From positions 64,001-128,000 of the IMG/VR virus record IMGVR_UViG_3300032156_000001: a stretch of 64,000 bases of DNA; one strand, written 5' to 3'. The stretch is from a virus. This document shows, in pieces, positions 2,449-60,139 of this stretch (its first letter is position 1; the number at the start of each line of letters is the position of its first letter). The position numbers and the translations under genes were made by a program. The notes under the pieces are model-generated. The model was not told the DNA's origin, did no database searches, and worked only from the letters and a program-made list of their open reading frames with translations.

Positions 2449-4316
2449 TCGAGCCGCTTTCGGTTTACCCGATCCAGGGGCAGGCGATCTCGGCCGATCT
2501 TCAGAGCCGCTTCAGAGGCGCGTTCCCCGACCCGTACTGCGACTACGCCAGCACGCAGACGCCCCGCAGCATCTACGACGTGCTGCGCTGGTCGGAGTTC
2601 ACGTGGATGATCGACGGCACCTACAGGATGGCGTCGCGCCGCGTGGTCAGGTACTTCCTCACGAAGCTGGAGTTCACCGACGCCAGCGACGACGAGAAGA
2701 AGAAGTACAACGACTACCTCGAAGACACGATGAAGATCATGAGGATCCTGGCGCTCCTCGGCGACAACTTCATCTGCTACGGCAACGTCTTTGTGTCGCT
2801 GCACGTCCCCTTCCGCCGCTACCTGAAGTGCCCGAAATGCAACCTGGAGCGGCCGATCGGCAACGTCAACTACGGGTGGTCCGACTACAGCTTCACCGCC
2901 GAGTGCAAGTGCGGGTACAGGGGGCAGCACACGCGCGTAGACAGGCGCAGCGTGGAGGCCGACCCGCCCAAGGTGGTCTTCTGGCCGCCGCAGGAGATGC
3001 GGGTCCTGTACAACGTCCTGACTGGCGACTCGGCGTACTTCTGGCAGATCCCCGGCTACGTGCGCGATTACATCCAGCGGGGGAACAAGCACTATCTGGA
3101 AGGCACGCCGTGGGAGGTCATCGAGGCGGTCAAGCAGAACAAGCTGTTCCGCTTCAACGACGACGTCATCTTCCACATGCGCGACGACTCCATTGCTGGA
3201 CTCCGGCACTTCGGCTGGGGCATACCGATGATAATGGCCAACTTCAAGCTGGCGTGGTCGATCCAGGTGCTGAAGCGGTACAACCAGGCCATCGCCCTGG
3301 ATTACATCATCCCGTTCAGGGTCGTCACGCCGCATCCCGGCAACAGCCGCGAGTCGGACCCCGTGCTGCACGTCAACCTGGGCAGCTTCAACGCCAACGT
3401 GGCGGCCATGATGCGCAGGCACAGGCTGGACCCGACGCAGATCAACTTCTTGCCGTTCCCTATCGACTTCCAGATGCTGGGAGCGGAGGGGAAGAACCTG
3501 GCGCCGGTGGAGCTGATCGACAAGACCACCGACGAGCTGCTGAATGCGCAGGGCATCCCGGCTGAGCTGTACAGGGGGACGCTCCAGGTGCAGGCCATGC
3601 CGACGGCCCTGCGCCTGTTCGAGCGCACCTGGACGCACCTCGTCAGCGGCATGAACGAATTCCTGGATTGGTTCTGCAAGCAGATCTCCGAGATCCGCAA
3701 CTGGGAGAACCTGCACGCGCGCCTGCAGCCCACCACGCTGGCCGAGGACATCGAGCGCCGGCAGATCCAGCTCCAGCTCGCGGCCGGCAGCCAGATCAGC
3801 CGGCAGACCGCGTGGGCGCCCTTCGGCATCGAGTACAGGGAAGAGGTCAAGCGGATGCTGGAGGAGAACGCCTTCGCGCAGCGCGAGCAGCAGCGGTTCC
3901 AGCAGGAGCAGCAGCAGCAGGCGCTCATGGAGGACACGGTCTACCAGATCTCGTCCGGCCAGGCGCCCGCCGGAAACGACCCCAACGCGCAGGCCCAGGC
4001 GCAGCAGCAAGGACAGCCGGTCCAGCAAGGCCAAGCCGGCCAGCAGCAGGCTGCACCGGTCCAGCAAGCCGGCATACAGATCCTGCAGCCTGCCGCCGGC
4101 ACCACGCCGGAGGACATGCTGGCGCAGGCGGAACAGATCGCCGGACAGCTGCTCAACATGCCCTACGAACAGCGGCGCGTGGAGATGACCAAAATTAAAC
4201 GTGGAAATGAAACTCTTCACAGCCTAGTTTTGTCAAAAATGGATCAGATCCGGCAGCGCGCGCAGACCCTCGGCGGCTACCAGATGATCCCGCAGCTGAC
4301 GGGCGCTGCCCAGTGA
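2445..4316 (+). CDS. putative phage portal protein with Zn-ribbon insertion and Gln-rich tail
   Basis: 623 aa; LGDNFICYGNVFVSL resembles the portal GNAF/GNAY motif; CPKC...CKC insertion; QQQ-rich C-terminus. Confidence 0.6.
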   Translation: MIEPLSVYPIQGQAISADLQSRFRGAFPDPYCDYASTQTPRSIYDVLRWSEFTWMIDGTYRMASRRVVRYFLTKLEFTDASDDEKKKYNDYLEDTMKIMRILALLGDNFICYGNVFVSLHVPFRRYLKCPKCNLERPIGNVNYGWSDYSFTAECKCGYRGQHTRVDRRSVEADPPKVVFWPPQEMRVLYNVLTGDSAYFWQIPGYVRDYIQRGNKHYLEGTPWEVIEAVKQNKLFRFNDDVIFHMRDDSIAGLRHFGWGIPMIMANFKLAWSIQVLKRYNQAIALDYIIPFRVVTPHPGNSRESDPVLHVNLGSFNANVAAMMRRHRLDPTQINFLPFPIDFQMLGAEGKNLAPVELIDKTTDELLNAQGIPAELYRGTLQVQAMPTALRLFERTWTHLVSGMNEFLDWFCKQISEIRNWENLHARLQPTTLAEDIERRQIQLQLAAGSQISRQTAWAPFGIEYREEVKRMLEENAFAQREQQRFQQEQQQQALMEDTVYQISSGQAPAGNDPNAQAQAQQQGQPVQQGQAGQQQAAPVQQAGIQILQPAAGTTPEDMLAQAEQIAGQLLNMPYEQRRVEMTKIKRGNETLHSLVLSKMDQIRQRAQTLGGYQMIPQLTGAAQ

Positions 4317-4326
4317 CGGAGCAACT

Positions 4327-4755
4327 TTGATGCTGCAGCTAGAGTTGAGCAACCTCCTCACCGTCGCGCTGGCCGCGCTGGCCCTGATGGGCGGGATGGT
4401 CGCGTTCATCGTGAGGATGTACGACGCGAAGCTCAAGGACCTGTCCTTGCGGGTGGACGGCGCTTTCCGGGCCTCGCAGGCGGCCGAAAAAGCCGCCGTG
4501 GACGAGGAGAAGAACCGCATTCTGGCGGTGCAGGCTTTGGCCGACGCTCGCAGCGCGGAGCACAAGGACGCCTTCACGAGGTCGTATAGGCGGATAGAGG
4601 ACCTTGAAAAGGAGGTCCATCAGTCCGCGATACAGACGCAGCGGCAGGTCAGCGATCTGGAAGTCACGGTATCCAGTTTCGGCGGCATGTACGTCACTAA
4701 GCATGAGCTGGAGCGCTGCCAGGACACGAACACCGGCCGTCATGGAGGTACATAG
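4327..4755 (+). CDS. N-terminal transmembrane + coiled-coil protein
   Basis: Hydrophobic LLTVALAALALMGGMVAFIV followed by a charged heptad region. Confidence 0.65.
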   Translation: MMLQLELSNLLTVALAALALMGGMVAFIVRMYDAKLKDLSLRVDGAFRASQAAEKAAVDEEKNRILAVQALADARSAEHKDAFTRSYRRIEDLEKEVHQSAIQTQRQVSDLEVTVSSFGGMYVTKHELERCQDTNTGRHGGT

Positions 4756-4756
4756 C

Positions 4757-5131
4757 ATGAGATTCCTGATATTCGACTCCAACAGGGTCTACGCCAAGAA
4801 GGTGCAGGCCCTGATCGAGGAACACATCAAGGACGCCGAGGTGGAGCTTGCGCACAACATCCCTGTGCTTCGCCAACGGCTGGACGGCGCCCGATACGAC
4901 CTGATCCTTGCCGACGTCGACACCACGCTCGATACCGCGGCGGCCCTGAAAGAGCTGAACTTGGTCGCCAAGAAGAGCATGGTCGTGGTCTGGTCCGCCG
5001 TCCGCACCCCGGTGACCAAGACGCAGGTATCGCCCCGCTGTGACGCGGCCATGGTGCTGCCGAAGGCCTTCGAGCCGAAAGCCATCCAGGTCGCGCTGGA
5101 CAAGGTGATACACGCGCGATGCGCCGTCTGA
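4757..5131 (+). CDS. stand-alone response-regulator receiver (CheY-like) domain
   Basis: MRFLIFDSN...YDLILADV...VVVWSA...VLPKAF follows the receiver beta1/D/T-S/K pattern; GGAGG RBS before ATG 4757. Confidence 0.65.
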   Translation: MRFLIFDSNRVYAKKVQALIEEHIKDAEVELAHNIPVLRQRLDGARYDLILADVDTTLDTAAALKELNLVAKKSMVVVWSAVRTPVTKTQVSPRCDAAMVLPKAFEPKAIQVALDKVIHARCAV

Positions 5132-5916
5132 TATGCGGTGTTTTCTGTGGTGAATTCGGCTGGGAACTGATGTCCTGGCAGGGCTATCTTCGTCGGCAGG
5201 CCAAGGGATTTGATGAGGTTGTCGTGGCGGCCCCGAAGGGCCACGAGCTGCTGTACGCCGACTTCTGCACGCAATATGTCCCTCATTGCGTGACGGGCGA
5301 CAAGGACTGCTGGTTCATCCGGGAGGCAAGCCCGGAGCTGGCCATCGTGGATCAGCATCTGGCCCGCATGGAAGGTACGTGGATCAAGCCGGCCAGGAAG
5401 TATTCGCTGGCCGAGCAGGACTTCGTGCCGTTCGGCGACCCCCAGCTGGCCCCGCCGGATTACCGCTTCGACGTCGTCATGCACGTGCGCGCGCTGGCGG
5501 GCCGCTCTGCTGAGCGCTCCTGGACGTCCGGCCACGCCGATGAAGTCGCTGCGCGCCTGTTGAGAGCCGGATACAAGGTCGCCGCCACCGGCCACTCCGC
5601 GCGCTGCCCGGCGGGCGCGACCGACATCCGCGGCCTGCCGCTGGCGCAGGAGGCCAACATCCTGGCGGCGGCAAGGCTGATGGTCGGCCCGTGCAGCGGC
5701 CCGATCCACTTCGCCGCGCTGTGCCGGCTGCCGGCGCTGGCCTGGACGGATAAGCGGTATTGGAGCGTTCTGGGCGGCACGAACAAGCAGCGGCTGGAGG
5801 AGCTGTGGAACCCGCTGCGGACTCCGGTCCACGTGATGGAGGACGGTTGGGAGCCGTCCATAATTGCCGTGGTCAGCACCGTAATGGCGTTGTTGGGCCT
5901 GCCGAGGGAAGTATGA
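5119..5916 (+). CDS. glycosyltransferase family 9-like protein
   Basis: C-terminal ARLMVGPCSGPIHFAALCRLP matches the GT9 DSGPxHLAAA pattern. Confidence 0.7.
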   Translation: MRRLICGVFCGEFGWELMSWQGYLRRQAKGFDEVVVAAPKGHELLYADFCTQYVPHCVTGDKDCWFIREASPELAIVDQHLARMEGTWIKPARKYSLAEQDFVPFGDPQLAPPDYRFDVVMHVRALAGRSAERSWTSGHADEVAARLLRAGYKVAATGHSARCPAGATDIRGLPLAQEANILAAARLMVGPCSGPIHFAALCRLPALAWTDKRYWSVLGGTNKQRLEELWNPLRTPVHVMEDGWEPSIIAVVSTVMALLGLPREV

Positions 5917-6713
5917 AGCGCCTTATCGCAGGGCCGTGGGCGGGGGAGCTGGGCTGGGAGCTCATGTCCTGGCAGGGGCTCGTCCGCAAGCTGAGCAGGG
6001 GTTACGACGAGACGGTCGTCTGTTCCGACGACGGCCACCAAGCCCTGTACGCCGACTTCGCGGCGTCGTACATACCGCACAAGCTGCTGGGGCAGCGGGA
6101 CTGCTACCACTTCATGCCCGCCAACCCCACGGCGTTCTTCGCGCTGATGGACAGCCTGACCAAGATGGGCGGCGACTGTGTCAGGCCGACGATACAGGCG
6201 CTGATGGCGCAGCAGGAGTTCATACGGTACGGCAACGCGGCCAGGTGCCCGGAGAACCGCCGCTACGACGTGCTGGTGCACGTGCGGCAGAAGAGGGACG
6301 TGAAGGTGCAGCGGTCGTGGCCGGAGGATCATGCTGTCGGCGTGGTGAAAACGCTGCGCGAGGCGGGGCTGCGCGTCGGCGCCATAGGCGCGCCAGGCAC
6401 GCCGATGGCCGGGGCGGCCAACGCGATCGGCTTCCCGCTGGGCGAGCTGATGGATGTGCTGGCCGCCGCTAAGCTGGTCGTCGGGCCGTGCAGCGGGCCG
6501 ATCCACCTGGCCGCGCTGTGCGGGACGCCGGCAGTCGCGTGGACGGACACGAGAAAATGGACTAGTCTGAAGTTCACCAACCGCGAGCGGCTGGAGCGGT
6601 ATTGGAACCCGCTCGGTACGCCCGTGCGCGTCGTCGACAAATACGGCTGGCTGCCGCCTGCCGACATCGTGGTCGGGCAGGCGCTGAGCTTCCTGGCGGA
6701 GATGAAGCGATAG
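5913..6713 (+). CDS. glycosyltransferase family 9-like protein (paralog of 5119-5916)
   Basis: Shares GExGWELMSWQG and VGPCSGPIHxAALC with the upstream gene; ATG 5913 overlaps the upstream stop. Confidence 0.7.
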   Translation: MKRLIAGPWAGELGWELMSWQGLVRKLSRGYDETVVCSDDGHQALYADFAASYIPHKLLGQRDCYHFMPANPTAFFALMDSLTKMGGDCVRPTIQALMAQQEFIRYGNAARCPENRRYDVLVHVRQKRDVKVQRSWPEDHAVGVVKTLREAGLRVGAIGAPGTPMAGAANAIGFPLGELMDVLAAAKLVVGPCSGPIHLAALCGTPAVAWTDTRKWTSLKFTNRERLERYWNPLGTPVRVVDKYGWLPPADIVVGQALSFLAEMKR

Positions 6714-6727
6714 GACGGGAGGGAACG

Positions 6728-6865
6728 GTGAGTGGCGTGGGCGGACAGGGACATTCGGATAAGTCCAACGGCATATCGGCTTGGATCTTCGCCGCGTGCG
6801 TCGGGTTGGGCCTGCTGGCGCTGCTGATAGCGGTGCTGGTCCACCAAATAGGCAAGGGAATCTGA
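6728..6865 (+). CDS. small single-TM protein
   Basis: GTG start; WIFAACVGLGLLALLIAVLV hydrophobic stretch fills the gap between genes. Confidence 0.4.
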   Translation: MSGVGGQGHSDKSNGISAWIFAACVGLGLLALLIAVLVHQIGKGI

Positions 6866-6874
6866 CCGAAGAAC

Positions 6875-7438
6875 ATGGTTGGACGGACGATGAGGCTCAA
6901 CGCGGCGGAGCGCGCCGCCCTTTACGACCAGCGGGGAGCGGCGTACTGCTCCCCGCTGGACCTGACGCTGCCGTTCATAGACGAGATGCTGCCGCGCAGC
7001 GTCTCCAGCGTCCTGGACATCGGCTGCGGCCGTGGCGACATCCTGGCGTATGCGGCCAAGTCGCTCAAGCTGGCGGGCGACGATGCCACAGGCGTGGATA
7101 TCAGCTCGGTGCGCATAGCGTACGCTAGGCAACAGCACCCGGCGCTGCGTTTCGTGGCCGCGGACGCCTTTGAGTTCCTTTCGGCCCCCGGGCTGCGCTA
7201 CGGAGCGGTCCTCCTGTTCGAGGTGCTGGAGCACGTCGACGACGACCTGAAGCTGCTGGCCTTGGCGCGGGCGGCCTGCGCGGGCAGGATCCTGGGGTCG
7301 CTGCCCGTCAGGGTCAAGGAGATGACGCACGCGCGCGACTTCGCCAGCCACGAGGAGGCCGCGCGGCGGTACAGGCTGACGTCGTGGCGGGCCCGCGGCC
7401 AGCACGTCCTGTTCTCGATGGAAGGAGGCACGGCGTGA
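6875..7438 (+). CDS. class I SAM-dependent methyltransferase
   Basis: VLDIGCGRG motif I, GVDIS, VLLFEVLEHV. Confidence 0.85.
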   Translation: MVGRTMRLNAAERAALYDQRGAAYCSPLDLTLPFIDEMLPRSVSSVLDIGCGRGDILAYAAKSLKLAGDDATGVDISSVRIAYARQQHPALRFVAADAFEFLSAPGLRYGAVLLFEVLEHVDDDLKLLALARAACAGRILGSLPVRVKEMTHARDFASHEEAARRYRLTSWRARGQHVLFSMEGGTA

Positions 7439-7914
7439 TCAAGGTGTACAACCCGGCGCTCACCGACATCTCGAAGGCGGCCGTCATAGGCGACGGCACC
7501 CGGATAGGGGTGTTCACGCGGATAGCGGCGCACGTGAAGATAGGCCGCAACTGCCTGATAGGATCGCACTGCAACGTGTGCGACGCCGTCGTCATAGGCG
7601 ACAACGTGTCGGTGCAGACGCGCTGCCACATCACCCGGATGACGGCGATAGGCAACGACGTGTTCATAGGCCCGGGCCTCGTAACCACTAACGACAAGTA
7701 CATGCGCAACGCCGGCCTCTGCATCGGCCCGAAGATAGAGGACGGCGCGCGGATAGGCGGCGGCGTCGTCCTCCTGCCCGGGGTAGTGGTGGGGAAGCTG
7801 GCCGTCGTGGGCGCCGGCAGCGTGGTGACGAAGGACGTCCCGGCCGGCATGCTCGTGTACGGCAACCCGGCCAGGGTGATCGGTCCCGCATCGGCGCTTG
7901 GGGAGAGGAAGTGA
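7435..7914 (+). CDS. hexapeptide-repeat (left-handed beta-helix) sugar acetyltransferase
   Basis: IGDGTRIG, IGNDVFIGPG, VGAGSVVTKDVP, GNPARVI; GTG 7435 behind GGAGG. Confidence 0.9.
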   Translation: MIKVYNPALTDISKAAVIGDGTRIGVFTRIAAHVKIGRNCLIGSHCNVCDAVVIGDNVSVQTRCHITRMTAIGNDVFIGPGLVTTNDKYMRNAGLCIGPKIEDGARIGGGVVLLPGVVVGKLAVVGAGSVVTKDVPAGMLVYGNPARVIGPASALGERK

Positions 7915-8600
7915 ACGTCTCGGTCCTGATACCCGTGCGGAACAAAGCAGGCGTCATCGGCCGCGTTCTGGCGGCGCTGGCGCCGCAGCTGGAGAGCGGC
8001 GACGAGGCCGTCGTCCTGGACGACCGATCGTCGGACGACAGCGGCGCGCAGGTAGCCGCCCATCCGGTCCGCCTGCTGACCCGCACCGGGGACCCGAAGC
8101 CGTACAGGCTGGCCAGCGCGCGCAACCTTCTCGTCCGCGAGGCGGCCAATCCCGAGCTGGTGTTCCTGGCCGCGGACTGCGTGCCGGAACCGGAGTTCAT
8201 CGCTGAGCACAAGCGTGGGCTGGCTGTGCGCACGCCGCGGATGATGGTGGCCGGCAGGGTCTGGAACCCCGGTTACGTCGGCGTGCGGCCGGAGCCGCTG
8301 CTGTCCGTGGACGACAAGTGGCGCAGGGTGTTCTCCGGCAATCTGAGCATGTCCAGGCGCGACTTCGACATGATAGGCGGGTTCGACGAGAACTTCGACG
8401 GCGCCTGGGGCCAGGAGGACGTGGAGTTCGCCTATCGCGCCGTCCGAGTTTATGGATACAGGATCCTTCGGATCGGCGCGGCCGCTTGGCACGATCCCCA
8501 TCCCAGGTGCGAACCGAGGTGCGACAGGAACTATGTCTACTTCAGGCGCAAATACAACCGATGTCCTGGTCTGCGCGGCACCGACGGGCGTGGTTCCTGA
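7911..8600 (+). CDS. glycosyltransferase family 2 (GT-A, GT7C-like C-terminus)
   Basis: VSVLIPVRN, VVLDDRSSD, GGFDENFDGAWGQEDVEF. Confidence 0.85.
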   Translation: MNVSVLIPVRNKAGVIGRVLAALAPQLESGDEAVVLDDRSSDDSGAQVAAHPVRLLTRTGDPKPYRLASARNLLVREAANPELVFLAADCVPEPEFIAEHKRGLAVRTPRMMVAGRVWNPGYVGVRPEPLLSVDDKWRRVFSGNLSMSRRDFDMIGGFDENFDGAWGQEDVEFAYRAVRVYGYRILRIGAAAWHDPHPRCEPRCDRNYVYFRRKYNRCPGLRGTDGRGS

Positions 8601-9372
8601 CAGGCAGGACAACCCGCACGTCCCGCTGTCCGTGAAGGAGATCGCGGACTGCGCGGTGGCGTGCGCCGACGCCGGCGCGGCCATGATCCATCTGCACGTC
8701 AGGGACGATGACGGTCGGGCCACGCTGTGCCCGAACAGATACACCCGCGTCATCGCTGCCATAAGGGAACGGCGGCCCGGCTTGGTGCTGTGCGTGTCGC
8801 TGAGCGGACGCGGCGGCGTGCCGGAGGCGGACCGCCATGGCCCGCTTTCGCTGGCCGGCGACGTAAAGCCCGACATGGCCAGCTTGACGCTCAGCTCGCT
8901 CAACTTTCCACGCTGCGCCAGCCCCAACCCACCTGAGCTGATCCAAGGGCTCGCCCGGCACATGTTGGATAGGGGGATCGCGCCGGAGTTGGAGGCGTTC
9001 GACCTGGGCATGGTCAACTATGCGAAGTACCTGATCGGCAAGGGGCTGCTGGAGCCGCCGTACCGGTTCAACCTGCTGCTGGGGAACATCGCGGGCGCTC
9101 AGCTGGACCCGCTGCACTTGGGCGCCATGCTGGCCGCGCTGCCGCCGGACTCGATGTGGCTCGCGGCGGGCATGGGTTTGCGCCAGCTGGCCGCCAACGC
9201 GCTCGGCATCATGTTTGGCGACGGTATCCGCGTAGGGATAGAGGACAATCCCACGGAGGGGCTGAGCAACGAGGAGCTCGTGCGTCGCGCGGTCGGGCTG
9301 GCCGCGCTGTTCGGCAGGAAACCGGCGACTGCCGTTGCGGCAAGGCAGAAACTGGGCTTGCCGGCCCGATAG
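8533..9372 (+). CDS. 3-keto-5-aminohexanoate cleavage enzyme family (BKACE/DUF849)
   Basis: CAAPTG, GAAMIHLHVRD, KPDMASL, IAPELEAFD, GIRVGIEDN. Confidence 0.85.
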   Translation: MSTSGANTTDVLVCAAPTGVVPDRQDNPHVPLSVKEIADCAVACADAGAAMIHLHVRDDDGRATLCPNRYTRVIAAIRERRPGLVLCVSLSGRGGVPEADRHGPLSLAGDVKPDMASLTLSSLNFPRCASPNPPELIQGLARHMLDRGIAPELEAFDLGMVNYAKYLIGKGLLEPPYRFNLLLGNIAGAQLDPLHLGAMLAALPPDSMWLAAGMGLRQLAANALGIMFGDGIRVGIEDNPTEGLSNEELVRRAVGLAALFGRKPATAVAARQKLGLPAR

Positions 9373-13138: not shown

Positions 13139-14101
13139 ATGCAGCACAACTGGGGACGTTGTCCCACGTCGGAGAGCGTGATGGCCGAGGTGGCCCAACT
13201 GACGGGGACGGAGCTGAAGTACGAGTTCAGGCAGGCCGTGCCGATTTCCAGCCTGAAGATCGGGCCGTCGAAGAAGAACAACGCCCGCCTCGAGCCGGTC
13301 GAGGAGGACGTGGCCGCGCGGTACGCGGCGGACATGCGGAAGGGGGACGTGTTCCCCGCGACCGTGATCCTCGACAACGGGCTCATCCTGGCCGGCAACA
13401 CCAGGGTCAAGGCCGCGCAGATGGCCGGCGCGGACGCCGTCGCGGCCTACGTCATCTGCGGCATCACGCCGGGGCAGCAGTTCTTCTTCGTCCGCCGGGA
13501 CAACGCGAAGCACGGGGTCCCGCTGTCCATGGACATGCAGGTGGAGACCTGCGCGGAGCTGCACCTCACGTACGGGATGCCCGTCAAGACCCTGTGCGAC
13601 CTGTGGTTCGGCACGGCGCTGTCGTACTACAACCGGATCATCGACGCCGTCCACGCGCGGAAGGTGGTCGCCAAGCTGTCCGGCTGGAAGGAGATCTCCG
13701 TCGCTGGCACGGCGCGCAGCACGCTGGCCGCGCTGTACCCGCTGCTCGACAGCAGGCACGTCCTCCGCGGCGCCGCGGACGTCGTGACGCGGCACGGCTA
13801 CTCGTCGGCGCAGACGTCGGCCCTGCTGGCCAGCATCAAGGCGAAGGACAACGAGGCCGACAAGCTGGCGGTGATCGAGGAAGACAGGAGGGCCAATGAG
13901 GGCAGGGTGAAGGGCACCCCGCGGTACGACCTCGACTTCAAGAGGGAGCTCAACAGGCTGCTGAACTTCCTCGAGACGGCCGCGAACGGCAAGCCGCTGC
14001 CCGGCGTCAGCAAGATCGCGTCGGACAAGAAGATCGCCGCGGAGCTGAAGGGCGTCATCGGCAAGATGATGGCCCGGCTGCGGCAGGTGAAAGGAGGATA
14101 G
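13139..14101 (+). CDS. ParB/Srx N-terminal domain protein
   Basis: NNARL...YAADMRKGDVFPATVILDNGLILAGNTRVKAA matches the ParB/Srx GxxR arginine-patch region. Confidence 0.7.
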   Translation: MQHNWGRCPTSESVMAEVAQLTGTELKYEFRQAVPISSLKIGPSKKNNARLEPVEEDVAARYAADMRKGDVFPATVILDNGLILAGNTRVKAAQMAGADAVAAYVICGITPGQQFFFVRRDNAKHGVPLSMDMQVETCAELHLTYGMPVKTLCDLWFGTALSYYNRIIDAVHARKVVAKLSGWKEISVAGTARSTLAALYPLLDSRHVLRGAADVVTRHGYSSAQTSALLASIKAKDNEADKLAVIEEDRRANEGRVKGTPRYDLDFKRELNRLLNFLETAANGKPLPGVSKIASDKKIAAELKGVIGKMMARLRQVKGG

Positions 14102-49214: not shown

Positions 49215-49897
49215 ACGCCGTCGTGACGGTCTGCATCGGCGACTTCTTCAGGCGGATCGCCAGGTTGACGCACCCGCCGATGCGGAAGTACGCCGAGCGG
49301 CTCGGCGCCGACTTCGTGGTCCTCGACAGGATGCTGACCGCCGAGAAGTACCCGCACTACGAGAAGTTCCGCATCCGCGACCTGCTGGACGACTACGCCA
49401 GGGCCGCCTACATCGACACGGACGCGCTCGTGCGGAACGACTGCCCCGACCTGTTCGCCGAGGTCCCGCCGGCAAAGCTGGGCGCGTTCCCGGAAGGCAG
49501 CCACGTCGACAGGACCGCGGCCGTGAAGCTGGCCTGCGAACAGTACGGATTGGAGTATGCCAGGTTCAGGGACAAGCCATACTTCAACACCGGCGTCATG
49601 GTGGTGTCGCGCTGCCACGCCAGGGCGTTCGTGAAGCCCGCGGTGGAGGTGCGCGACTTCTGGGAGCAGTCCTACCTGAACCTGCGGTTCGTCATCGAGG
49701 ACGTCGAGATGCACGAACTGTCCCACAGGTTCAACCGGCTGCCCGCCTTCGACTACGCGTCGGCCAAATGCTGCGTCCCCATCGACGAGCCCCGCCTGGA
49801 CAGTTGGATCGTGCACCACGCGGGCGGGATCAAGGCGGGCGTCATCAGCCGCATCGCCTGCGACCTGGCGGCGTGGCGCGCCCGCGGCCTCGCGTAG
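49211..49897 (+). CDS. glycosyltransferase family 8-like protein (paralog of 47398-48090)
   Basis: YIDTDALVRNDCPDLF, FNTGVMV, EQSYLN, IVHHAG. Confidence 0.75.
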   Translation: MNAVVTVCIGDFFRRIARLTHPPMRKYAERLGADFVVLDRMLTAEKYPHYEKFRIRDLLDDYARAAYIDTDALVRNDCPDLFAEVPPAKLGAFPEGSHVDRTAAVKLACEQYGLEYARFRDKPYFNTGVMVVSRCHARAFVKPAVEVRDFWEQSYLNLRFVIEDVEMHELSHRFNRLPAFDYASAKCCVPIDEPRLDSWIVHHAGGIKAGVISRIACDLAAWRARGLA

Positions 49898-49926
49898 TTG
49901 ACTGCCCGCCCCTTCCGACCGATAAT
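49898..49926 (+). promoter_or_regulatory. sigma70-like promoter
   Basis: TTGACT-17 nt-GATAAT. Confidence 0.65.
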
Positions 49927-49950
49927 GGCCCTATGAAGGGGGAACGGCCA

Positions 49951-50784
49951 ATGGCGGAGGAAAAACCCATGCGAAAAGCCCTTCTTGTTGGCATCAACCA
50001 GTACAGCGCGCCGTACGCGCTGCAGGGCTGCGTCAACGACGTCATGGCGATGCGCAGCCTGCTGCGCGACTACCTGGGCTTCCCGGCGTCGGGCATCCTG
50101 ATCCTGAAGGACAAGCAGGCGACCACGAGGAACATCCTGAACGGCCTGAGGTGGCTGGCCAACATCAACGCCGGCGGCATCGCCCTGTTCCACTATTCCG
50201 GTCACGGCGCGCAGGTGCTCACCAGCGACCCCGGCGAGCCGGACGGATTGGCCGAGTGCATCTGCCCGGTCGACTTCAACTGGACGCCGCAGCGCATGAT
50301 CACCGACAAGCAGCTTGTCGCGGCGCTGGCGTTGCTGCCGTCCACCGCGGCTACGAACTGGTTGTCGGATTCCTGCCATGCGGGAGGACTGGACGAGACC
50401 GACCGCGGCGCCAAATCGCTCGCGACCGACAAGCGGACCCTGCGGCACATGATACTGCCGCCTGCCATGGCCGCCGAGGTGGAGCGCCTGAGGAAGAAGA
50501 AAAAGACCAAGGTGCGGACGATGGCGAAGTCGCTGAAGGCGGCGGAACTGGCCGTAGGCTTCATGGCGGCCTGCAGGGCCAACCAGACGGCGTCCGACAC
50601 GTACGAGGACGGTCGGTGGTGCGGCGCGTTCACGTGGGCGTTCCTGAAGGCCGTGAAGGCCAATACCCGCGCGGCGCTGACCGACCTCTGCGCGACCACG
50701 CGTTCGACCCTGTCGAAGGCGCGCTACTCGCAGGCCCCGCAGGTGGAAGGCACGAGGATCGACAAGCCGTTCCTGTCCTGGTGA
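49951..50784 (+). CDS. caspase-family cysteine protease (metacaspase, peptidase C14)
   Basis: KALLVGINQY, LQGCVND, FHYSGHG (catalytic His), SDSCH (catalytic Cys), GAFT. Confidence 0.9.
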   Translation: MAEEKPMRKALLVGINQYSAPYALQGCVNDVMAMRSLLRDYLGFPASGILILKDKQATTRNILNGLRWLANINAGGIALFHYSGHGAQVLTSDPGEPDGLAECICPVDFNWTPQRMITDKQLVAALALLPSTAATNWLSDSCHAGGLDETDRGAKSLATDKRTLRHMILPPAMAAEVERLRKKKKTKVRTMAKSLKAAELAVGFMAACRANQTASDTYEDGRWCGAFTWAFLKAVKANTRAALTDLCATTRSTLSKARYSQAPQVEGTRIDKPFLSW

Positions 50785-53764: not shown

Positions 53765-56700
53765 ATGCCCGACAGCGACCTTCCGCTCGGCCTCCCGGCC
53801 GCCCAGCCGCTCCAGTTGCGCCGCTTCGACGACCACCACGCCGCGCGCGTCAATATCCTGAACGGCGTCGTGTCGGCGCTGCAGGAGAAGTATCCCGTCG
53901 AGAACGAGCGGTACAGGTTGGAGCTTTCCGGCCTGCACTACAAGCAGCCCAACAGCTACTCGCTGGAGGAGCAGAAGAAGGCGATCATCCACGGCGACTC
54001 GCTGCACGCCAAGCTGCACGGCACGTGGGCGCTGATTGACAAGGCCAGCGGCAAGCCGGTAGACACCAAGGAGACCGTCGTGGCGCACGTGCCGTGGCTG
54101 ACCGAGCGCGGCACGCTCATCCACAACGGGTCCGAGTATTTAATAAGTTCGCAATTCCGTTTGAAGCCCGGCGTCTACTCGCGCATGAAGGACAACGGCA
54201 TCCTGGAGGCCCACGTCAACGTGAAGCCCGGGACCGGGCCGTCCTTCCGCGTCTACATGGAGCCGGAGACCGGCGTGTTCCGCATGGCGGTCGGGCAGTC
54301 CACGCTGAAGCTCTACCCGATCCTGCGATCCATGGGCGTGTCCGACAAGGAGCTGCGCGACGCCTGGGGCGAGGAGCTGCTGCACAAGAACGTCGAGGCC
54401 GAGGACCCGCGCGCGGTAGGCCGCGCGTTCGCGAAGCTGGTCGAGAAGCCCGTCGAGGAAGGGCACCCGACGATCGTGTCTGCCGCGATGCCGGAGCTGC
54501 CGAAGGCGGCCAGCGAGACGCCCGAGACGGTCAAGAAGCTGCAGAAGATCGTCGATGCGCACAAACTTAAAGGCGGATATGGCGACGTTGCCTGGGACGA
54601 GGAGACCGGCGAGACCCACCTGTCCGTCGGCGACTGGCACGAGCAGGAAGACTATGCCGGGCTTGAGAAGGCCATCAAGGCCGTCCCGGGCGTGAAGAAG
54701 TTCCAGGTCGAGGCGGAAATAGGTCCGCCCGACGGCTGGTGGGCCGTCAACCACGGTCGTGAGCCGAAGATCTGGCACAAGCCGAAGCCGCGCGATCCCG
54801 AGCAGGAAGCCGCATTCATGGCCAGCCTCGACGGGCCGCCGCTCAAGATTGTCGGGCAGACGCTCAAGGAGGCCCAGGCGCCGATCGGCCAGAAGACCAC
54901 GGACCGCAAGTGGAAGTACCTGTGGTTCCACGGCGAGCTGTACACGAACCCGCCCGACAAGGAGCACCCGGATCCGTGGGTGCTGCTGAAGGTCCACAAG
55001 GGCCTGCCGCAGGCCGCCTATGCCACGCTGAAGGGCGAGGGCGTCGACTGCGAGCCGCACTACGACGACCCGCACGTCTCCGTCCTGCGCGGCGAGGAAG
55101 TCCGCGAGCTCATAAAGAAGTATGGCGACCAGTGGCAAGGCGCGGCCAAGATCGGTCAGAAGATGCGCTTCCGCCTGAGCAAGATCGTCAGCCTCGTGCC
55201 GGGCGGCTGGCCGGAGATGGACCGCGTGTGGTTCATCGAGGTAGAGTCGCCCGAGCTGGAGGAGTACCGGAAGGACCTCGGCTTCCGCAATCTGCCGCTC
55301 CAGCCGAAGACTGGCAACGAGGTCAGGTTCCATGTCACTTTCGCCGTGAAGCCGAACGTCGCGAGCAAGGCCGCCGCGGCGCTGACCGAGCCGCCCGAGG
55401 AAGGGGCGACGGCGCCGGCGGTCAAGCCGCCCGGCGAGGAAGGCCGGAAGATCCTGCACGCGCTCCAGCAGATGGAGCTCGACCCCGACGTCACGGAGTC
55501 GACGCTAGGCGAGCGGCACGTGAACGTGACGCCGAAGATGATGGTCCGGGCGACAAAGAAGCTGCTGGGCATCCAGAAGGGGACCGAGGAGACCGACGAC
55601 CGCGACTCGCTGGCCTACCAGACGCTGCACTCGCCGGAGGACTTCTTCGCGGAGCGGATCAGGCGCGATGCCGGCGGGCTGGGCAGGCGGATGCTGTGGC
55701 ACGCGACCAGGAAGGGCAACCTCGACTACGTCCAGAGCGGCGCGCTGACGCCGCAGATGCACGCCGTCCTGCTGAGCAGCGGGCTGGCCGCCGCGGCCGA
55801 GGAAACGAACCCGCTCGAGCTGGCCGATCAGCATCATCGCGTCGTGCGCACGGGCGAGGGAGGGATGTCGTGTTATTCGGAAGATACCGAAGTGCTAACG
55901 ATAGAAGGATGGAAACACTGGGGAACCGTCGTCGCTGCTGACGAACTTGCCTGTCGGGTGAACGGTCGGTTGGAGTTCCACCGACCGACGCGTCTTTTTA
56001 GCGGCGCATATCGCGGAAAGCTCTTATCTGCCGATACCCGGGTGATCAACTACGCGGTTACTCCGGATCATAGGGTGTTCGTGTCTTGGGATACGACGAC
56101 GGCCGGCCACGAATCGGTTCGGTCTCCGTTCCGGTTTCGGCCGGCTTTCGATATCCACGGCAAAAGAGTGCGGCATTTGGTTTCCGCTGAACCGTATCTG
56201 GGTGGCAGCCGGCCGGACAAACACGTTTTGCCGCCTGCGCCCGTTGACCGGGAAAACGCAGGATCCGCGAGAAGAGAGGCACTAGAGCTTGATTTTCTGG
56301 ACTGGGTGGAGTTCCTCGGTTGCTACCTGGCTGACGGCAGTTTCAGGTACGATGGCGACCGGCACGAATACCGAACGGAAGTTGGGAAAGTCCGATCATT
56401 GAATCCTGGCGAATACGCTACGATTGACGCCGTTTTGCGCCGATTGGGATTCACTTACAGATATGAGCAGAATCGTCGGTTTATCGTTCACGGGAAACAT
56501 CTGGCACACTACTTGTCGAAGTTTGGTAAAGCATGGACGAAGTACGTGCCGGAATACGTGATGCGCGGCGATATAGAAACGCGAAAGCGTTTCTTCTTTG
56601 CCATAACGACGATGGATCACACGGCGGCGTGCCCTGGACTGTCCTTCAAATATATGTCCGCTTCACCTAAGCTGGCCGAGCAGGTGGCTTGGCTGGCTGT

Positions 56701-59700
56701 TTCTCTCGGATACGCAGTTCACTACCTGACTCGCGTCAACCACAACAGGACCAATCCGATACATGTCATTCATATTTCTGAAGCCTCGGAAAGTCTCGTC
56801 TATCGGCAACACGCCGGCTTGCAGTATCGTGAACTTGATTATGCTGGAACGGTCTATTGCGCGTCTGTTCCTGGGGAGCTGGTATTTATACGTAGACACG
56901 GAAAAACGATGTGGTGTGGCAACTCCTTAGATGCAGTCCCCGAGGAGGCCAGGGTGGTGCAGCCGTCCCACTTCGGCTTCGTCGATCCGAGCCGCGCGCC
57001 CGAATCTGCAAGAATGGGTTTGGACAGCAGGATCGCCCACGGCGCGCTGCGCGGCAGCGACGGCCAGGTCCATGCGCCGATGCTGGACCTGAAGACCGGC
57101 AAGACCGAACTAGTGTCCGCGGCGCAGGCCGTCAAGAGCGTGGTCGCGTTCCCCGGCGAGATGGCCAGGACCGGCGCCACCGCCCGCGCCATGGTGCGCG
57201 GCAAGCGCATCGAGAACGTGCCGAAGGGCGAGGTGGACTTCGAGCTGCCCCACCACGCGCACATGTTCTCCGGGGTGACGAACCTCGTCCCCATGGCCGG
57301 CGCGCTGAAGGGCGGCCGGCTCATGATGGGCGCGAAGTTCTTCAGCCAGGCGCTGCCGCTCCAGCACAGCGAGGCGCCGCTGGTCCAGAACCTGTCGCCG
57401 GACGGCCGCAGCTTCGACGAGATCATGGGCGAGAAGGTCGGCGCGGTGCGGGCGGCCAAGCGCGGCGTCGTTATCGGCATCGACAAGAACAAGGTCCTCG
57501 TCCGCGAGGAGGGCGGCGGCAAGCGCGAGTACCCGCTGTACGACAACTTCGTCTTCAACAGGCGCACCGCGATCCACAACACGCCCGCCGTCGGCATCGG
57601 CGAGACGGTCGAGCCGGGCGCGCTGCTGGCCAGGAGCAACTATACGGACGCCAAGGGCGACACGGCGGTCGGGCTGAACTTGCGGACCGCGTACATGCCG
57701 TTCAAGGGCCTGAACTACGAGGACGCCGTCGTCATCAGCGAGAGCGCCGCCCAGCGGCTCAGCTCCGAGCACATGTTCCAGCGGACGCTCGAGAAGGACG
57801 ACCGCGACATGGAGTTCGGCAAGAAGCCGTTCATGTCGGTCTTCCCGGCCAAGTACGTCAAGGACCAGCTGGGCCGGATGGACGAGCACGGCGTGGTCAG
57901 ACCCGGGACCGTCGTGAAGAAGGGCGACCCGCTGATCCTCGGCATGGAGAAGACGCGGTTCACGCACACGCACCGCGGCCACAAGCCCATCTACACCGAC
58001 GCGTCGGAGACGTGGGACCACGAGGCGGACGGCACCGTCACGGACGTGTCGCCCACCAAGGGCGGCGGCTGGAACGTCACCGTGAAGACGTACCTGCCGG
58101 CGCAGACGGGCGACAAGCTGGCCGCGCGGTTCGGCGACAAGGGCGTCATCTCCGAGGTGATGCCGGACCACCAAATGCCGCACGACTCGCAGGGCAGGCC
58201 CATCGAGCTGTGCCTGAACCCGCTGGGGGTCATCAGCCGCGGCAACCCCGCGCAGGTCTACGAGGCGCTGCTGGGCAAGATCGCCCGGAAGACCGGGCGC
58301 GCGTACGTGGTGCCGTCCTTCCGAAACGGCAGCTGGATCGACTTCGTCCAGGGCGAGCTGCGCAAGAACGGCCTGAGCGACACGGAGGACCTGACCGACC
58401 CCTCGACGGGGACGAAGATCCCCGGCGTCCTGACCGGCGAGCGCTTCATGATGAAGCTGCACCATACCGCCGAGTCGAAGGGCAAGGGCAGGGACGTCGG
58501 CAGCTACACGTCGGAGGGGCTGCCCGCCATAGGGAGCAAGCGGATAGGCCAGATGGAGACCAGCGCGCTGGTCTCGCACAACGTCATGGACGTGCTCAAG
58601 GACGCCAAGCTGGTCCGCGGCCAGAGGAACGACGACTACTGGCGCGAGTTCCGCATGGGCAACGTGCCCGCGTCGCCGCAGACGCCGCTGGTCTACAGGA
58701 AGTTCCTGGCCAGCCTCACGGGCGCCGGCATCAACGTGAAGAAGGAGGGCAACAAGCTCAACCTGTTCGCCCTGACGGACAAGGACGTCGACAAGCTCAG
58801 CGCCGGCGAGGTCAAGGCCCCGCATACCGTCGCCGGCAACGATCTCGCGGAGATAGAGGGCGGCCTGTTCGACAAGGGGCTAACGGGCGGGCATGGCGGT
58901 TCGCGGTGGAGCCACGTGAATCTCGACGAGCCGACGCCCAACCCCGTCATGGAGGAGCCCACTCGCAGGCTGCTCGGCATGACGCAGAAGCAGTTCGAGG
59001 CGGCCATCTCGGCGCGCGGCGGCCAGGGGATCAAGGACGCGCTCTCGAAGATGGACGTGGACCGCGAGATCACTCGGTACGAGGACGAGGTCAAGACGGG
59101 CGCGCGGTCGCGGCGCGATAACGCCGTGAAGTGCCTCGGCTATCTTGAGGCCATGCGGACGCAGGGTTACAAGCCGGAAGAGCTGGTGATGTCGAAGGTC
59201 CCCGTCCTGCCGCCGGGCATGCGCCCCATCGTCCCGTTCCAGGGCAGGCCGCTGGTGTCGGACCCGAACTATCTGTACCGCGACCTGATGCACGCGAACC
59301 AGGATCTGAAGGACGCGAAGGGCGAGCTCGGCGCGGAGCGCGCCGGCGCAGAGCGGCTACGGCTGTACAACGCCTTCAAGGCGGTGACCGGCCTGGGCGA
59401 CCCCGTGCAGGCGAAGACCCGCGAGGCCAACGTGCGCGGCCTGCTGGCGCACGTGTTCGGGACCGGCGGACCCAAGACTTCGATGTTCCAGCGTCGTGTC
59501 CTCAGCACGCCGGTGGACGTGGTCGGGCGCGCGGTCATCACGCCGAACCCGCAGCTGTCGATGGACCAGGTCGGCCTGCCCGAGGAGAAGGCCTGGACGA
59601 TCTACAGACCGTTCATAACCCGCAGGCTGATCCGGCGCGGCATGCCCGCCACCGAGGCCGCGCGCGCCGTGGCGGACAGGCACCCCACGGCGAAGAACGC

Positions 59701-60139
59701 GCTGCTGGAGGAGATGCAGGCCCGGCCCGTCCTCATCAACCGCGCGCCGACGCTGCACAAGTACGGCTTCATGGCGGCGTGGCCGACGCTGGTGAAGGGC
59801 GACACGCTGCAGATCTCGCCGGTGGTGACGCCGGGCTTCGGCGCGGACTTCGACGGCGACGCGATGAACTACCACGTGCCGGTGTCCGACGCCGCCGTCC
59901 GCGAGGCCAAGGAGAAGATGCTGCCGTCGGCGAACTTGCGCGACGTCCGCGGGTTCAAGCTGCACTACCTGCCTCGACACGAGTTCCTGCTTGGGCTATA
60001 CTTGGCCAGCACGGCGGACAACCGCAACGAGCCGCGGTCGTTCCGCACGAGACAGGACGCGCTGCGCGCCTACCGCCGCGGCGAGCTCGGGCTTGGCGAC
60101 CGCGTGGCCACGCTGGACGAAGGGGAGAAGAAGAAATGA
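53765..60139 (+). CDS. phage multisubunit RNA polymerase, beta subunit fused to the N-terminal/catalytic part of beta'; contains an intein and inserted domains
   Basis: beta: GDKLAARFGDKGVI, NPLGVISRGN, FMMKLHH, SKRIGQME. beta': VPVLPPGMRP, SDPNYLYRDL, VDVVGRAVITP, NRAPTLH, GADFDGDAM (DFDGD at 59846-59860). Confidence 0.92.
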   Translation: MPDSDLPLGLPAAQPLQLRRFDDHHAARVNILNGVVSALQEKYPVENERYRLELSGLHYKQPNSYSLEEQKKAIIHGDSLHAKLHGTWALIDKASGKPVDTKETVVAHVPWLTERGTLIHNGSEYLISSQFRLKPGVYSRMKDNGILEAHVNVKPGTGPSFRVYMEPETGVFRMAVGQSTLKLYPILRSMGVSDKELRDAWGEELLHKNVEAEDPRAVGRAFAKLVEKPVEEGHPTIVSAAMPELPKAASETPETVKKLQKIVDAHKLKGGYGDVAWDEETGETHLSVGDWHEQEDYAGLEKAIKAVPGVKKFQVEAEIGPPDGWWAVNHGREPKIWHKPKPRDPEQEAAFMASLDGPPLKIVGQTLKEAQAPIGQKTTDRKWKYLWFHGELYTNPPDKEHPDPWVLLKVHKGLPQAAYATLKGEGVDCEPHYDDPHVSVLRGEEVRELIKKYGDQWQGAAKIGQKMRFRLSKIVSLVPGGWPEMDRVWFIEVESPELEEYRKDLGFRNLPLQPKTGNEVRFHVTFAVKPNVASKAAAALTEPPEEGATAPAVKPPGEEGRKILHALQQMELDPDVTESTLGERHVNVTPKMMVRATKKLLGIQKGTEETDDRDSLAYQTLHSPEDFFAERIRRDAGGLGRRMLWHATRKGNLDYVQSGALTPQMHAVLLSSGLAAAAEETNPLELADQHHRVVRTGEGGMSCYSEDTEVLTIEGWKHWGTVVAADELACRVNGRLEFHRPTRLFSGAYRGKLLSADTRVINYAVTPDHRVFVSWDTTTAGHESVRSPFRFRPAFDIHGKRVRHLVSAEPYLGGSRPDKHVLPPAPVDRENAGSARREALELDFLDWVEFLGCYLADGSFRYDGDRHEYRTEVGKVRSLNPGEYATIDAVLRRLGFTYRYEQNRRFIVHGKHLAHYLSKFGKAWTKYVPEYVMRGDIETRKRFFFAITTMDHTAACPGLSFKYMSASPKLAEQVAWLAVSLGYAVHYLTRVNHNRTNPIHVIHISEASESLVYRQHAGLQYRELDYAGTVYCASVPGELVFIRRHGKTMWCGNSLDAVPEEARVVQPSHFGFVDPSRAPESARMGLDSRIAHGALRGSDGQVHAPMLDLKTGKTELVSAAQAVKSVVAFPGEMARTGATARAMVRGKRIENVPKGEVDFELPHHAHMFSGVTNLVPMAGALKGGRLMMGAKFFSQALPLQHSEAPLVQNLSPDGRSFDEIMGEKVGAVRAAKRGVVIGIDKNKVLVREEGGGKREYPLYDNFVFNRRTAIHNTPAVGIGETVEPGALLARSNYTDAKGDTAVGLNLRTAYMPFKGLNYEDAVVISESAAQRLSSEHMFQRTLEKDDRDMEFGKKPFMSVFPAKYVKDQLGRMDEHGVVRPGTVVKKGDPLILGMEKTRFTHTHRGHKPIYTDASETWDHEADGTVTDVSPTKGGGWNVTVKTYLPAQTGDKLAARFGDKGVISEVMPDHQMPHDSQGRPIELCLNPLGVISRGNPAQVYEALLGKIARKTGRAYVVPSFRNGSWIDFVQGELRKNGLSDTEDLTDPSTGTKIPGVLTGERFMMKLHHTAESKGKGRDVGSYTSEGLPAIGSKRIGQMETSALVSHNVMDVLKDAKLVRGQRNDDYWREFRMGNVPASPQTPLVYRKFLASLTGAGINVKKEGNKLNLFALTDKDVDKLSAGEVKAPHTVAGNDLAEIEGGLFDKGLTGGHGGSRWSHVNLDEPTPNPVMEEPTRRLLGMTQKQFEAAISARGGQGIKDALSKMDVDREITRYEDEVKTGARSRRDNAVKCLGYLEAMRTQGYKPEELVMSKVPVLPPGMRPIVPFQGRPLVSDPNYLYRDLMHANQDLKDAKGELGAERAGAERLRLYNAFKAVTGLGDPVQAKTREANVRGLLAHVFGTGGPKTSMFQRRVLSTPVDVVGRAVITPNPQLSMDQVGLPEEKAWTIYRPFITRRLIRRGMPATEAARAVADRHPTAKNALLEEMQARPVLINRAPTLHKYGFMAAWPTLVKGDTLQISPVVTPGFGADFDGDAMNYHVPVSDAAVREAKEKMLPSANLRDVRGFKLHYLPRHEFLLGLYLASTADNRNEPRSFRTRQDALRAYRRGELGLGDRVATLDEGEKKK
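54940..55350 (+). other. 2H-phosphoesterase-like domain inserted in the RNAP beta region
   Basis: Two HxS/T motifs: PHVSV (55073) and FHVTF (55331). Confidence 0.65.
55871..56923 (+). mobile_element. intein (351 aa) with LAGLIDADG-type homing endonuclease domain
   Basis: Starts CYSEDTEVLT, ends VYCASVPGELVFIRRHGKTMWCGN, +1 Ser; FLGCYLADGSF block; lower GC than the exteins. Confidence 0.9.

Follow-up and report, generated by a model that had tools for sequence, protein, structure and literature searches.

We analyzed a 64,000-nucleotide stretch of DNA (hereafter the window) that corresponds to bases 64001-128000 of the 188,118-bp IMG/VR virus record IMGVR_UViG_3300032156_000001, which derives from an uncultured phage. 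The window has a base composition of ~65% G+C, and nearly all of its genes lie on the + strand. One of these encodes a fused RNA polymerase (RNAP) subunit in which beta is joined to the N-terminal half of beta'. Within the beta part of this protein we identified an insert that contains a domain of the 2H phosphoesterase superfamily and is bordered by three-residue Lys-x-Ala (K-x-A) motifs (Table 1). Here we describe this insert and its relatives, and we consider whether it could be an enzyme that is carried into the host cell by the phage polymerase.

A 2H phosphoesterase domain inserted in a phage RNAP beta subunit

The open reading frame (ORF) at 53765-60139 matches Pfam families in the order RNAP beta (Rpb2_6, Rpb2_3, Rpb2_2), then beta' N-half (Rpb1_1, Rpb1_2). 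Its closest cultured relatives are gp206 of Salmonella phage Arash and the homologous proteins of Vibrio phages D69, D148 and D181, with ~33-34% identity. In comparison to these relatives, the protein has two big additions, an insert at residues 233-557 and an intein. The intein begins with Cys and ends with WCGN followed by S, and some relatives, among them P0009, P0013 and P0003, have inteins at this position or elsewhere. The catalytic loop of the beta' part, near window position 59840 (residue 2026), reads G-A-D-F-D-G-D where the usual form is N-A-D-F-D-G-D, and this loop Gly is invariant among the six closest homologues.

The limits of the insert follow from alignments to relatives that lack it. 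The alignment to D69 stops at residue 232 of the query and restarts at residue 558, with six residues between, and the alignment to Arash breaks likewise (4-6 residues), so we place the insert at residues 233-557. An initial annotation, made from the letters of the window alone, had described a stretch foreign to beta at 54503-55380; this description holds, and the true insert is slightly wider (54461-55435). The same annotation had suggested looking for the presence or absence of the insert in homologous RNAPs. In a survey of 80 related RNAP loci from IMG/VR, 68 hold just 2-13 amino acids at this site, 11 have a 2H-containing insert, and one has a 93-amino acid Cys/His-rich insert. In a tree of the RNAP core, loci with a 2H domain at this site fall in two separate clades. 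At locus L057, beta is encoded by two ORFs that are parted exactly at the insertion site; these ORFs (2992-3750 and 3787-8703) are in the same frame, with intervening stop codons and a new ATG for the second.

We mapped the insertion site by aligning insert-free phage beta N-termini with Salmonella RpoB using hhalign, which placed it in the beta lobe (probability 98.7%). The phage residues at the insertion point span RpoB template residues ~226-350, with an accuracy of ~20 residues either way, and enterobacterial beta (E. coli/Salmonella) has ~110 extra residues in the same stretch. We take this region to correspond to the lineage-specific insertion SI1 (beta-i4), E. coli residues ~225-343. 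SI1 has a non-enzymatic fold and is a fixed feature of a bacterial lineage. The phage insertion resembles SI1 in lying, by profile alignment, in the same region of the lobe, and it differs in consisting of swappable enzyme modules at a site that is empty in most relatives.

The first part of the insert (module 1) is a domain of ~90 amino acids that folds as a ferredoxin/ACT-like alpha-beta sandwich in an AlphaFold model of the insert, with a predicted local distance difference test (pLDDT) score of 65-82. A VIA structure comparison gave Z scores of ~6 to ACT, MgtC-C and many unrelated small domains, so we regard this fold as generic. Homologues of module 1 are present in P0002 (another RNAP), P0019, P0079 and P0126, and a search of the ESM Atlas with module 1 gave no usable match. 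A low-confidence linker that ends in K-E-A-Q connects module 1 to the second domain.

The second domain matches Pfam family PF22547 (2H-SAK) with 31.2 bits when the insert is searched alone and 27.3 bits when the whole protein is searched (gathering cut-off, 27). A HMMER search of 1.8 billion representative sequences returned 438 relatives at E <= 1e-3. The insert matched no sequence family besides 2H-SAK in Pfam at E values up to 1, and none in NCBIfam; in particular, LigT_PEase, 2_5_RNA_ligase2 and NCBIfam ThpR had no match in this protein. Sub-threshold matches of the LigT/ThpR type were found in relatives P0022 (8.5e-4), L005 (3.8e-3) and L108 (2.9e-3). A profile search of PDB sequences with the domain recovered no 2H chain and just spurious matches to ribosomal L15.

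The AlphaFold model, which was built from a 54-sequence alignment, has a pLDDT of 87-98 over the 2H domain. Using a Z-scored structure search that is independent of Foldseek, we found only 2H enzymes among the top PDB hits of this part, with Z values of 5-7.2 over 104-124 aligned residues (penguinpox cyclic GMP-AMP (cGAMP) phosphodiesterase, 7.2; Burkholderia phage BCSR5 phosphodiesterase, 6.6; human Usb1, phage FBB1 Acb1 and Pyrococcus LigT, 6.4 each; mouse hepatitis virus ns2 and Deinococcus CPDase, 6.2 each; CNPase, 6.1). The Foldseek search that the initial annotation had proposed was concordant with a 2H fold, which is made up of two pseudo-symmetric beta-sheet lobes, with probabilities of 0.8-0.9 in PDB and with 2H-SAK and Acb1 models among the BFVD matches. 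For a predicted structure, these moderate and mutually tied Z values place the domain in the 2H superfamily rather than in any one subfamily, and it is their consistency that carries the argument.

The domain contains both motifs expected of a 2H enzyme, as had been noted in the initial annotation from the paired HxS and HxT. The sequences H437-V-S-V and H523-V-T-F are separated by 86 residues, in line with the ~80-90 residues typical of the superfamily. In two alignments, which comprise 54 and 77 members of the family, both His are nearly invariant, as is the second-motif Thr. The 19 active copies embedded in RNAPs of this clade all have PH[IV][ST] as the first motif and FH[IV]T as the second. 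This is the single 2H copy in the phage genome. From the Pfam match, the predicted fold and the two intact motifs, we conclude with high confidence that the insert contains a genuine 2H-SAK domain of the 2H superfamily, placed in a permissive loop of the beta lobe.

Table 1. Features of the RNAP gene, of other genes of this phage and of related loci. Positions refer to the window unless stated otherwise.
Feature	Position	Strand	Basis or remarks
Fused RNAP beta::beta' N-half subunit, 2124 amino acids, with insert and intein	53765..60139	+	Pfam, homology
Whole insert, residues 233-557, ~325 amino acids	54461..55435	+	Alignment breakpoints against relatives without insert
K-x-A site 1, ELP-KAA-S, K247, beta-N/module 1 junction	54503..54511	+	Junction motif also in L004, L005, L006, L008, L013
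Module 1, small ferredoxin/ACT-like alpha-beta domain	54512..54784	+	AlphaFold, VIA; residues ~250-340
K-x-A site 2, TL-KEA-Q, K368, N-flank of 2H	54866..54874	+	Offset conserved in family
2H phosphoesterase domain (2H-SAK), residues ~382-532	54908..55360	+	Pfam, AlphaFold, structure matches
First catalytic motif, H437-V-S439	55073..55081	+	His nearly invariant in family
Second catalytic motif, H523-V-T525	55331..55339	+	H and T nearly invariant
K-x-A site 3, AS-KAA-A, K535, C-flank of 2H	55367..55375	+	Flank conserved in family
Intein, 351 amino acids, LAGLIDADG homing-endonuclease core	55871-56923	+	Residues 703-1053 of RNAP ORF
Caspase-like protease	49768-50784	+	Pfam Peptidase_C14, 105 bits; NCBIfam caspase_w_EACC1, weak; ~3 kb upstream of RNAP gene
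Polyvalent protein, 1346 amino acids	17455-21495	+	SNF2 helicase, LigD phosphoesterase, LigD-like ATP-dependent ligase, Zn-metallopeptidase-like tail
Major capsid protein	record ~141800-142731, outside window		G-[LM]-V-K-E-A at residue ~25
Dead 2H inserts of sister clade	~3650-4210 of each locus		L018, L019, L020, L022, L037, L054
Alternative modules at RNAP site in relatives	L008:3643-5004, L013:3643-4665, L004:3679-4716, L005:3649-4797, L006:3670-3948		

Elsewhere in the window, a transposase-like ORF (29726-31051, +) matches phrog_4285 with an E value of 3.5e-37 and a ParB-like ORF (13139-14101, +) weakly matches phrog_620. Most of the remaining large ORFs of the window have no PHROG match.

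Relatives of the 2H domain in polyvalent proteins and polymerases

Iyer, Burroughs, Anand, de Souza and Aravind (2017; PMC5512222) described 2H domains in phage polyvalent proteins, which are predicted to be packaged and injected, and listed 2H and InPase among the phage-type polyvalent domains that are likely to be treated in this way. The known polyvalent 2H domains are N-terminal in MuF-, portal- or stand-alone polyvalent proteins, and the sole polymerase among the polyvalent-protein domains of that study is the single-subunit N4-like virion polymerase. The domain that we describe belongs to the same family and shares with these proteins the paired H-x-[ST] motifs, a short leader, K-x-A borders, the partner modules InPase, SET, SNF2 and DUF5661, and a predicted delivery with the virion. 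It differs from them in its carrier, which is an essential multisubunit RNAP beta, and in its position, which is internal in the lobe.

We found the 2H-SAK gene outside the polymerase on 23 further IMG/VR contigs, 21 of which also encode the same type of RNAP, most at 43-50% identity. Given this co-occurrence, the 2H-SAK family is largely a property of one phage group, at least in IMG/VR. In the stand-alone proteins, which are ~170-1580 amino acids long, the domain is N-terminal and lies behind a short leader that mostly ends with K-x-A. Across 77 such proteins the partner domains include InPase (11 proteins), SET (8), DUF5661 (5), SNF2 helicase (4), NUDIX (3) and LigD 3'-phosphoesterase (3), as well as GNAT, kinase-like P-loops and HAD, a set that is the polyvalent-protein repertoire of PMC5512222. 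A tblastn search with the 2H domain and with P0056, a typical member of the family, gave no match in 50,697 cultured-phage records.

The phage under study encodes a polyvalent protein of its own (17455-21495), which does not contain a 2H domain. At the related loci L118 and L130, the homologous LigD/ligase part lies directly behind a 2H-SAK domain, and the L118 protein has a P-loop as well. PMC5512222 saw no association of 2H domains with ligases, whereas the sister phages in our survey fuse 2H to LigD phosphoesterase and a ligase-homologous region.

The polymerase inserts of relatives are likewise built from several modules, in the combinations SET+HAD-like+2H, SET+2H, HAD-like+2H and Cys-rich+2H, where the HAD-like assignment is a sequence motif in L004 and a sub-cut-off LNS2 Pfam match alone in L008. 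Here SET denotes a methyltransferase domain and HAD-like a putative phosphatase domain. DUF5661 occupies the same RNAP site in P0007. With a 2H domain and a ferredoxin-like module in one polypeptide, the insert under study combines several unrelated domains in the manner that defines polyvalent proteins. When we built a tree of the 2H domains, the copies from within RNAPs grouped with a small number of stand-alone proteins and away from the bulk of the family. In P0006, P0010 and P0012, the protein opens with a short leader and a K-x-A-type motif (K-x-G in P0012), after which come the 2H domain and then beta. As the beta of L057 is split at this site and the beta parts of P0006, P0010 and P0012 start there, we reason that a polymerase cut at this position would be viable.

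A sister clade (L018-22, L037 and L054) has a 2H-derived insert of 166-170 amino acids at the same site in which both His motifs are gone. The family hidden Markov model still matches these dead inserts (E 1e-6 to 1e-8), and their K-x-A flanks are kept. In pairwise comparisons between members of this clade, nonsynonymous divergence is low (pN 0.14-0.26) and synonymous divergence is saturated (pS 0.70-0.95), indicating that the dead 2H domain is under purifying selection.

K-x-A motifs at the module borders

The initial annotation had described K-x-A motifs as the borders of the insert and of its two parts, at KAAS (54503), KEAQ (54866) and KAAA (55367), and all three positions are correct. Their number in this protein is at the level of chance, with 11 motifs seen and 11.9 expected in the whole RNAP protein and 3 seen and 2.95 expected in the insert. 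Their position, on the other hand, is conserved across homologues. The downstream motif begins at K535, 12 residues past the second His, and neither K535 nor A536 varies among 6 RNAP homologues. To extend this comparison, we used 149 family representatives (clusters at 50% identity), for which a background of 0.8% per residue predicts ~12 proteins with a motif in each interval examined. Of these representatives, 92 have a K-x-A at a distance of 56-64 residues upstream of the first His, and 104 have one that follows the second His by 10-19 residues. On the downstream side of the domain, each of the 19 active copies embedded in RNAPs has a K-x-A; on the upstream side, the motif is K-x-A in 17 of them and K-x-G in 2. 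The consensus is L-x-K-[AST]-A-[AG]-D at the upstream border and N-[ED]-V-[ST]-K-A-A-[SAE] at the downstream border.

The same arrangement is found beyond the 2H domain itself. In the polymerase cassettes of relatives L004, L005, L006, L008 and L013, a K-x-A marks each module junction (beta-N to SET, SET to HAD-like, HAD-like to 2H, Cys-rich to 2H, and 2H to beta), and in the stand-alone proteins the upstream K-x-A lies at residues 10-36, where it closes the short leader. The upstream site of our insert is within a segment that is disordered in the AlphaFold model (pLDDT 43-49). A conserved motif in a disordered linker fits a recognition site better than an element of a fold.

Phage head maturation offers precedents for such a code. 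Internal head proteins are processed in T4, with capsid targeting and cleavage by gp21 (L/I-x-E), and in phiKZ, by gp175 (S/A/G-x-E). The K-x-A motif is similar to these in being a short three-residue motif that recurs where N-terminal leaders end and domains meet in proteins of the head module, and it differs in its residues. Several Arash head proteins contain it at high density: gp220, gp223 and gp225 each have 7-8 K-x-A in 200-307 amino acids. More broadly, we observed dense [LMI]-x-K-x-A-[SAG] in gp220, gp221, gp222, gp223, gp225 and gp226 of the Arash head module (L087, Arash 139000-165000). Arash and the phage under study also agree in their major capsid proteins, which have G-L-V-K-E-A (residue 27) and G-M-V-K-E-A, respectively, at the same place. 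Thus, K-x-A looks like a head-protease code, with the Arash head proteins and the shared capsid motif as circumstantial support. The published mass spectrometry of tryptic peptides cannot settle whether K-x-A is cleaved, because trypsin itself cuts after Lys.

We also looked for a protease that could read this motif. The caspase-like gene upstream of the RNAP gene is present in just 5 of 33 related phage genomes, and we therefore consider it a lineage-specific accessory gene. It is absent from L005 (100% complete), L013 and L054, which have K-x-A-flanked cassettes, so it cannot be the general K-x-A reader, and we rejected it in this role. PMC5512222 proposed a Zn-peptidase domain type for the processing of polyvalent proteins; the Zn-peptidase tail of the 17455-21495 protein was found sporadically, in 5 of 24 genomes searched with a single sequence. 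The prohead protease Pfams S78 and ClpP have no match in this genome, and a search for S77 gave no match here and none in any control genome either.

Proposed virion delivery, possible substrates and alternative explanations

Polymerases of this type appear to travel in the virion. In gradient-purified Arash virions, gp206 had the highest spectral count (3516 spectra); among the other proteins detected were the beta' C-half, a sigma factor, two RNA ligases and a helicase (PMC10585845). Arash gp206 is the same fused subunit (34% identity) and its gene has the same neighborhood beside head genes, so that packaging of the polymerase in the uncultured phage may be inferred from orthology and gene position. 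Arash and Vibrio phage D69 differ from this phage in having neither the insert, nor the intein, nor a detectable 2H-SAK gene.

On balance, we favor the explanation that residues 233-557 are a two-module cassette of the polyvalent type, composed of a ferredoxin-like domain and a 2H domain that is predicted to be catalytically competent, which has been inserted in frame into RNAP beta and is delivered with the virion as a cargo enzyme. The cassette would lie in a loop on the surface of the beta lobe, at a place where insertions, and even a split of the gene, are tolerated. Since virions appear to contain this type of polymerase, infection would bring the enzyme into the host cell together with it, and we consider it slightly more likely than not that the cassette is cargo of the polyvalent-protein type that acts early in infection. 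The initial annotation had likewise suggested an anti-defense or RNA-repair enzyme that hitch-hikes into the virion, which is a plausible reading. Its activity would most likely be hydrolysis of a 2',3'-cyclic or 2'-5' phosphodiester. Within this mechanism, the K-x-A motifs at the module borders would most likely be sites for a phage maturation protease, and cleavage there would release the modules, with beta remaining as two pieces that stay associated. We propose such a release only tentatively and rate it as less likely than not. A still broader proposal, which we regard as speculative and unlikely, is that an essential RNAP beta serves as a polyprotein carrier from which a Lys-x-Ala protease frees effectors in the capsid while the split polymerase stays functional, and that the same code directs the processing of capsid, scaffold and Swiss-army-knife proteins throughout this phage group.

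A number of our observations weigh against the explanation that we favor. The authors of PMC10585845 warn that abundant enzymes might co-purify with particles. No protease co-varies with K-x-A among those that we looked at (C14, Zn-peptidase and the classical prohead proteases), the number of K-x-A motifs in this protein is no higher than chance predicts, and these motifs could be linker or helix-capping elements. Moreover, the dead copies indicate that the 2H domain can have a non-catalytic role, which a pure enzyme-cargo model does not explain.

The main alternative is that the insert is a permanent, uncut and lineage-specific domain of the polymerase, comparable to SI1, that acts in cis, with K-x-A as only a conserved linker motif. 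Such a domain could bind or trim RNA or nucleotides nearby, dock a partner or aid packaging. This explanation is consistent with the mapping of the site to the part of the lobe in which a large insertion is also present in enterobacterial beta, with the strong purifying selection on a dead 2H domain at the same site, and with the chance-level number of motifs and the lack of a protease that tracks them. It does not readily account for the finding that sister phages have the same 2H domain, with the same flanks and a short leader, as the N-terminal part of unrelated proteins with several domains. In addition, the free swapping of SET, HAD-like and Cys-rich modules at the site suits cargo better than it suits an integrated polymerase function, 68 of the 80 relatives do without any insert, and the beta of L057 is naturally split at this point. 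We therefore judge a permanent polymerase domain to be unlikely, if still worthy of serious consideration.

The initial annotation had linked the domain to Acb1, and an enzyme of this type would destroy the cyclic oligonucleotide immune signals of the cyclic-oligonucleotide-based antiphage signaling system (CBASS) on arrival in the host. The structural neighbors of the domain include the penguinpox cGAMP phosphodiesterase and FBB1 Acb1, along with Acb1 models in BFVD, and degradation of defense nucleotides was raised as a possible role of polyvalent-protein 2H domains in PMC5512222. Acb1 (T4/FBB1), the poxvirus cGAMP phosphodiesterase, LigT/ThpR and Usb1 all resemble the domain in their 2H fold, their two H-x-T/S motifs and predicted Z values of 6-7; they differ from it in sharing no sequence family with it and in being free-standing rather than polymerase-embedded. 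However, the Z values of Usb1, LigT, CPDase, ns2 and CNPase are within 1 unit of that of Acb1, so the Acb1 match is not discriminating, and the sequence searches described above matched 2H-SAK only, with no 2H enzyme recovered from PDB sequences. The P-loop kinase-like, LigD phosphoesterase and ligase-homologous partners in sister phages also point elsewhere, toward the healing of RNA ends. Consequently, the specific link to Acb1 is not borne out, and we consider an Acb1-type anti-CBASS enzyme improbable. Finally, we rejected as vanishingly improbable an assembly chimera or a chance His-x-Ser/Thr pair in a low-complexity linker, to which a metagenome-derived contig and a pLDDT of 38 in a single-sequence AlphaFold model might have pointed, given that the ORF is open and in frame over 2124 amino acids, that the same architecture occurs on many independent contigs, that the library search gave 438 matches, and that pLDDT exceeds 90 once an alignment is used.

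Returning to the virion-delivered cassette that we favor, two kinds of substrate come into consideration. RNA ends left by host ribonucleases are a plausible one, at a probability just short of even, and we slightly favor such end healing because sister phages fuse 2H-SAK to kinase-like, LigD-phosphoesterase and ligase-homologous modules. Against this, no Rnl2-type RNA ligase was found in this genome; a search for Rnl1-type RNA ligases gave no match in any genome tried. Host immune signal nucleotides are a possible but less than probable substrate, and destruction of 2'-5' or cyclic nucleotide signals comes next in our ranking, as InPase, NUDIX and HAD occur among the partner domains and viral phosphodiesterases among the structural neighbors. 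The remaining likelihood falls to an RNase similar to Usb1 or to a non-catalytic binding role.

The individual elements of this system, namely the 2H-SAK family, polyvalent proteins as a concept, polymerases of the Arash type and insertions in the beta lobe, are already known separately. For a polyvalent enzyme cassette in a multisubunit RNAP beta with a conserved junction motif, we found no earlier description in the papers that we consulted. If our explanation is correct, large uncultured Arash-like phages (~150-250 kb) use a packaged multisubunit RNAP to deliver interchangeable enzymes, and the borders of the modules are marked by a simple three-residue code. This would provide a testable case in which a multisubunit virion polymerase delivers effectors, a candidate for a new protease specificity in head maturation, and a natural permissive site at which a phage polymerase could be engineered to carry cargo. 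Knowledge of the 2H substrate would, in turn, reveal whether these phages counter RNA-cleaving defenses, nucleotide-signaling defenses, or both.

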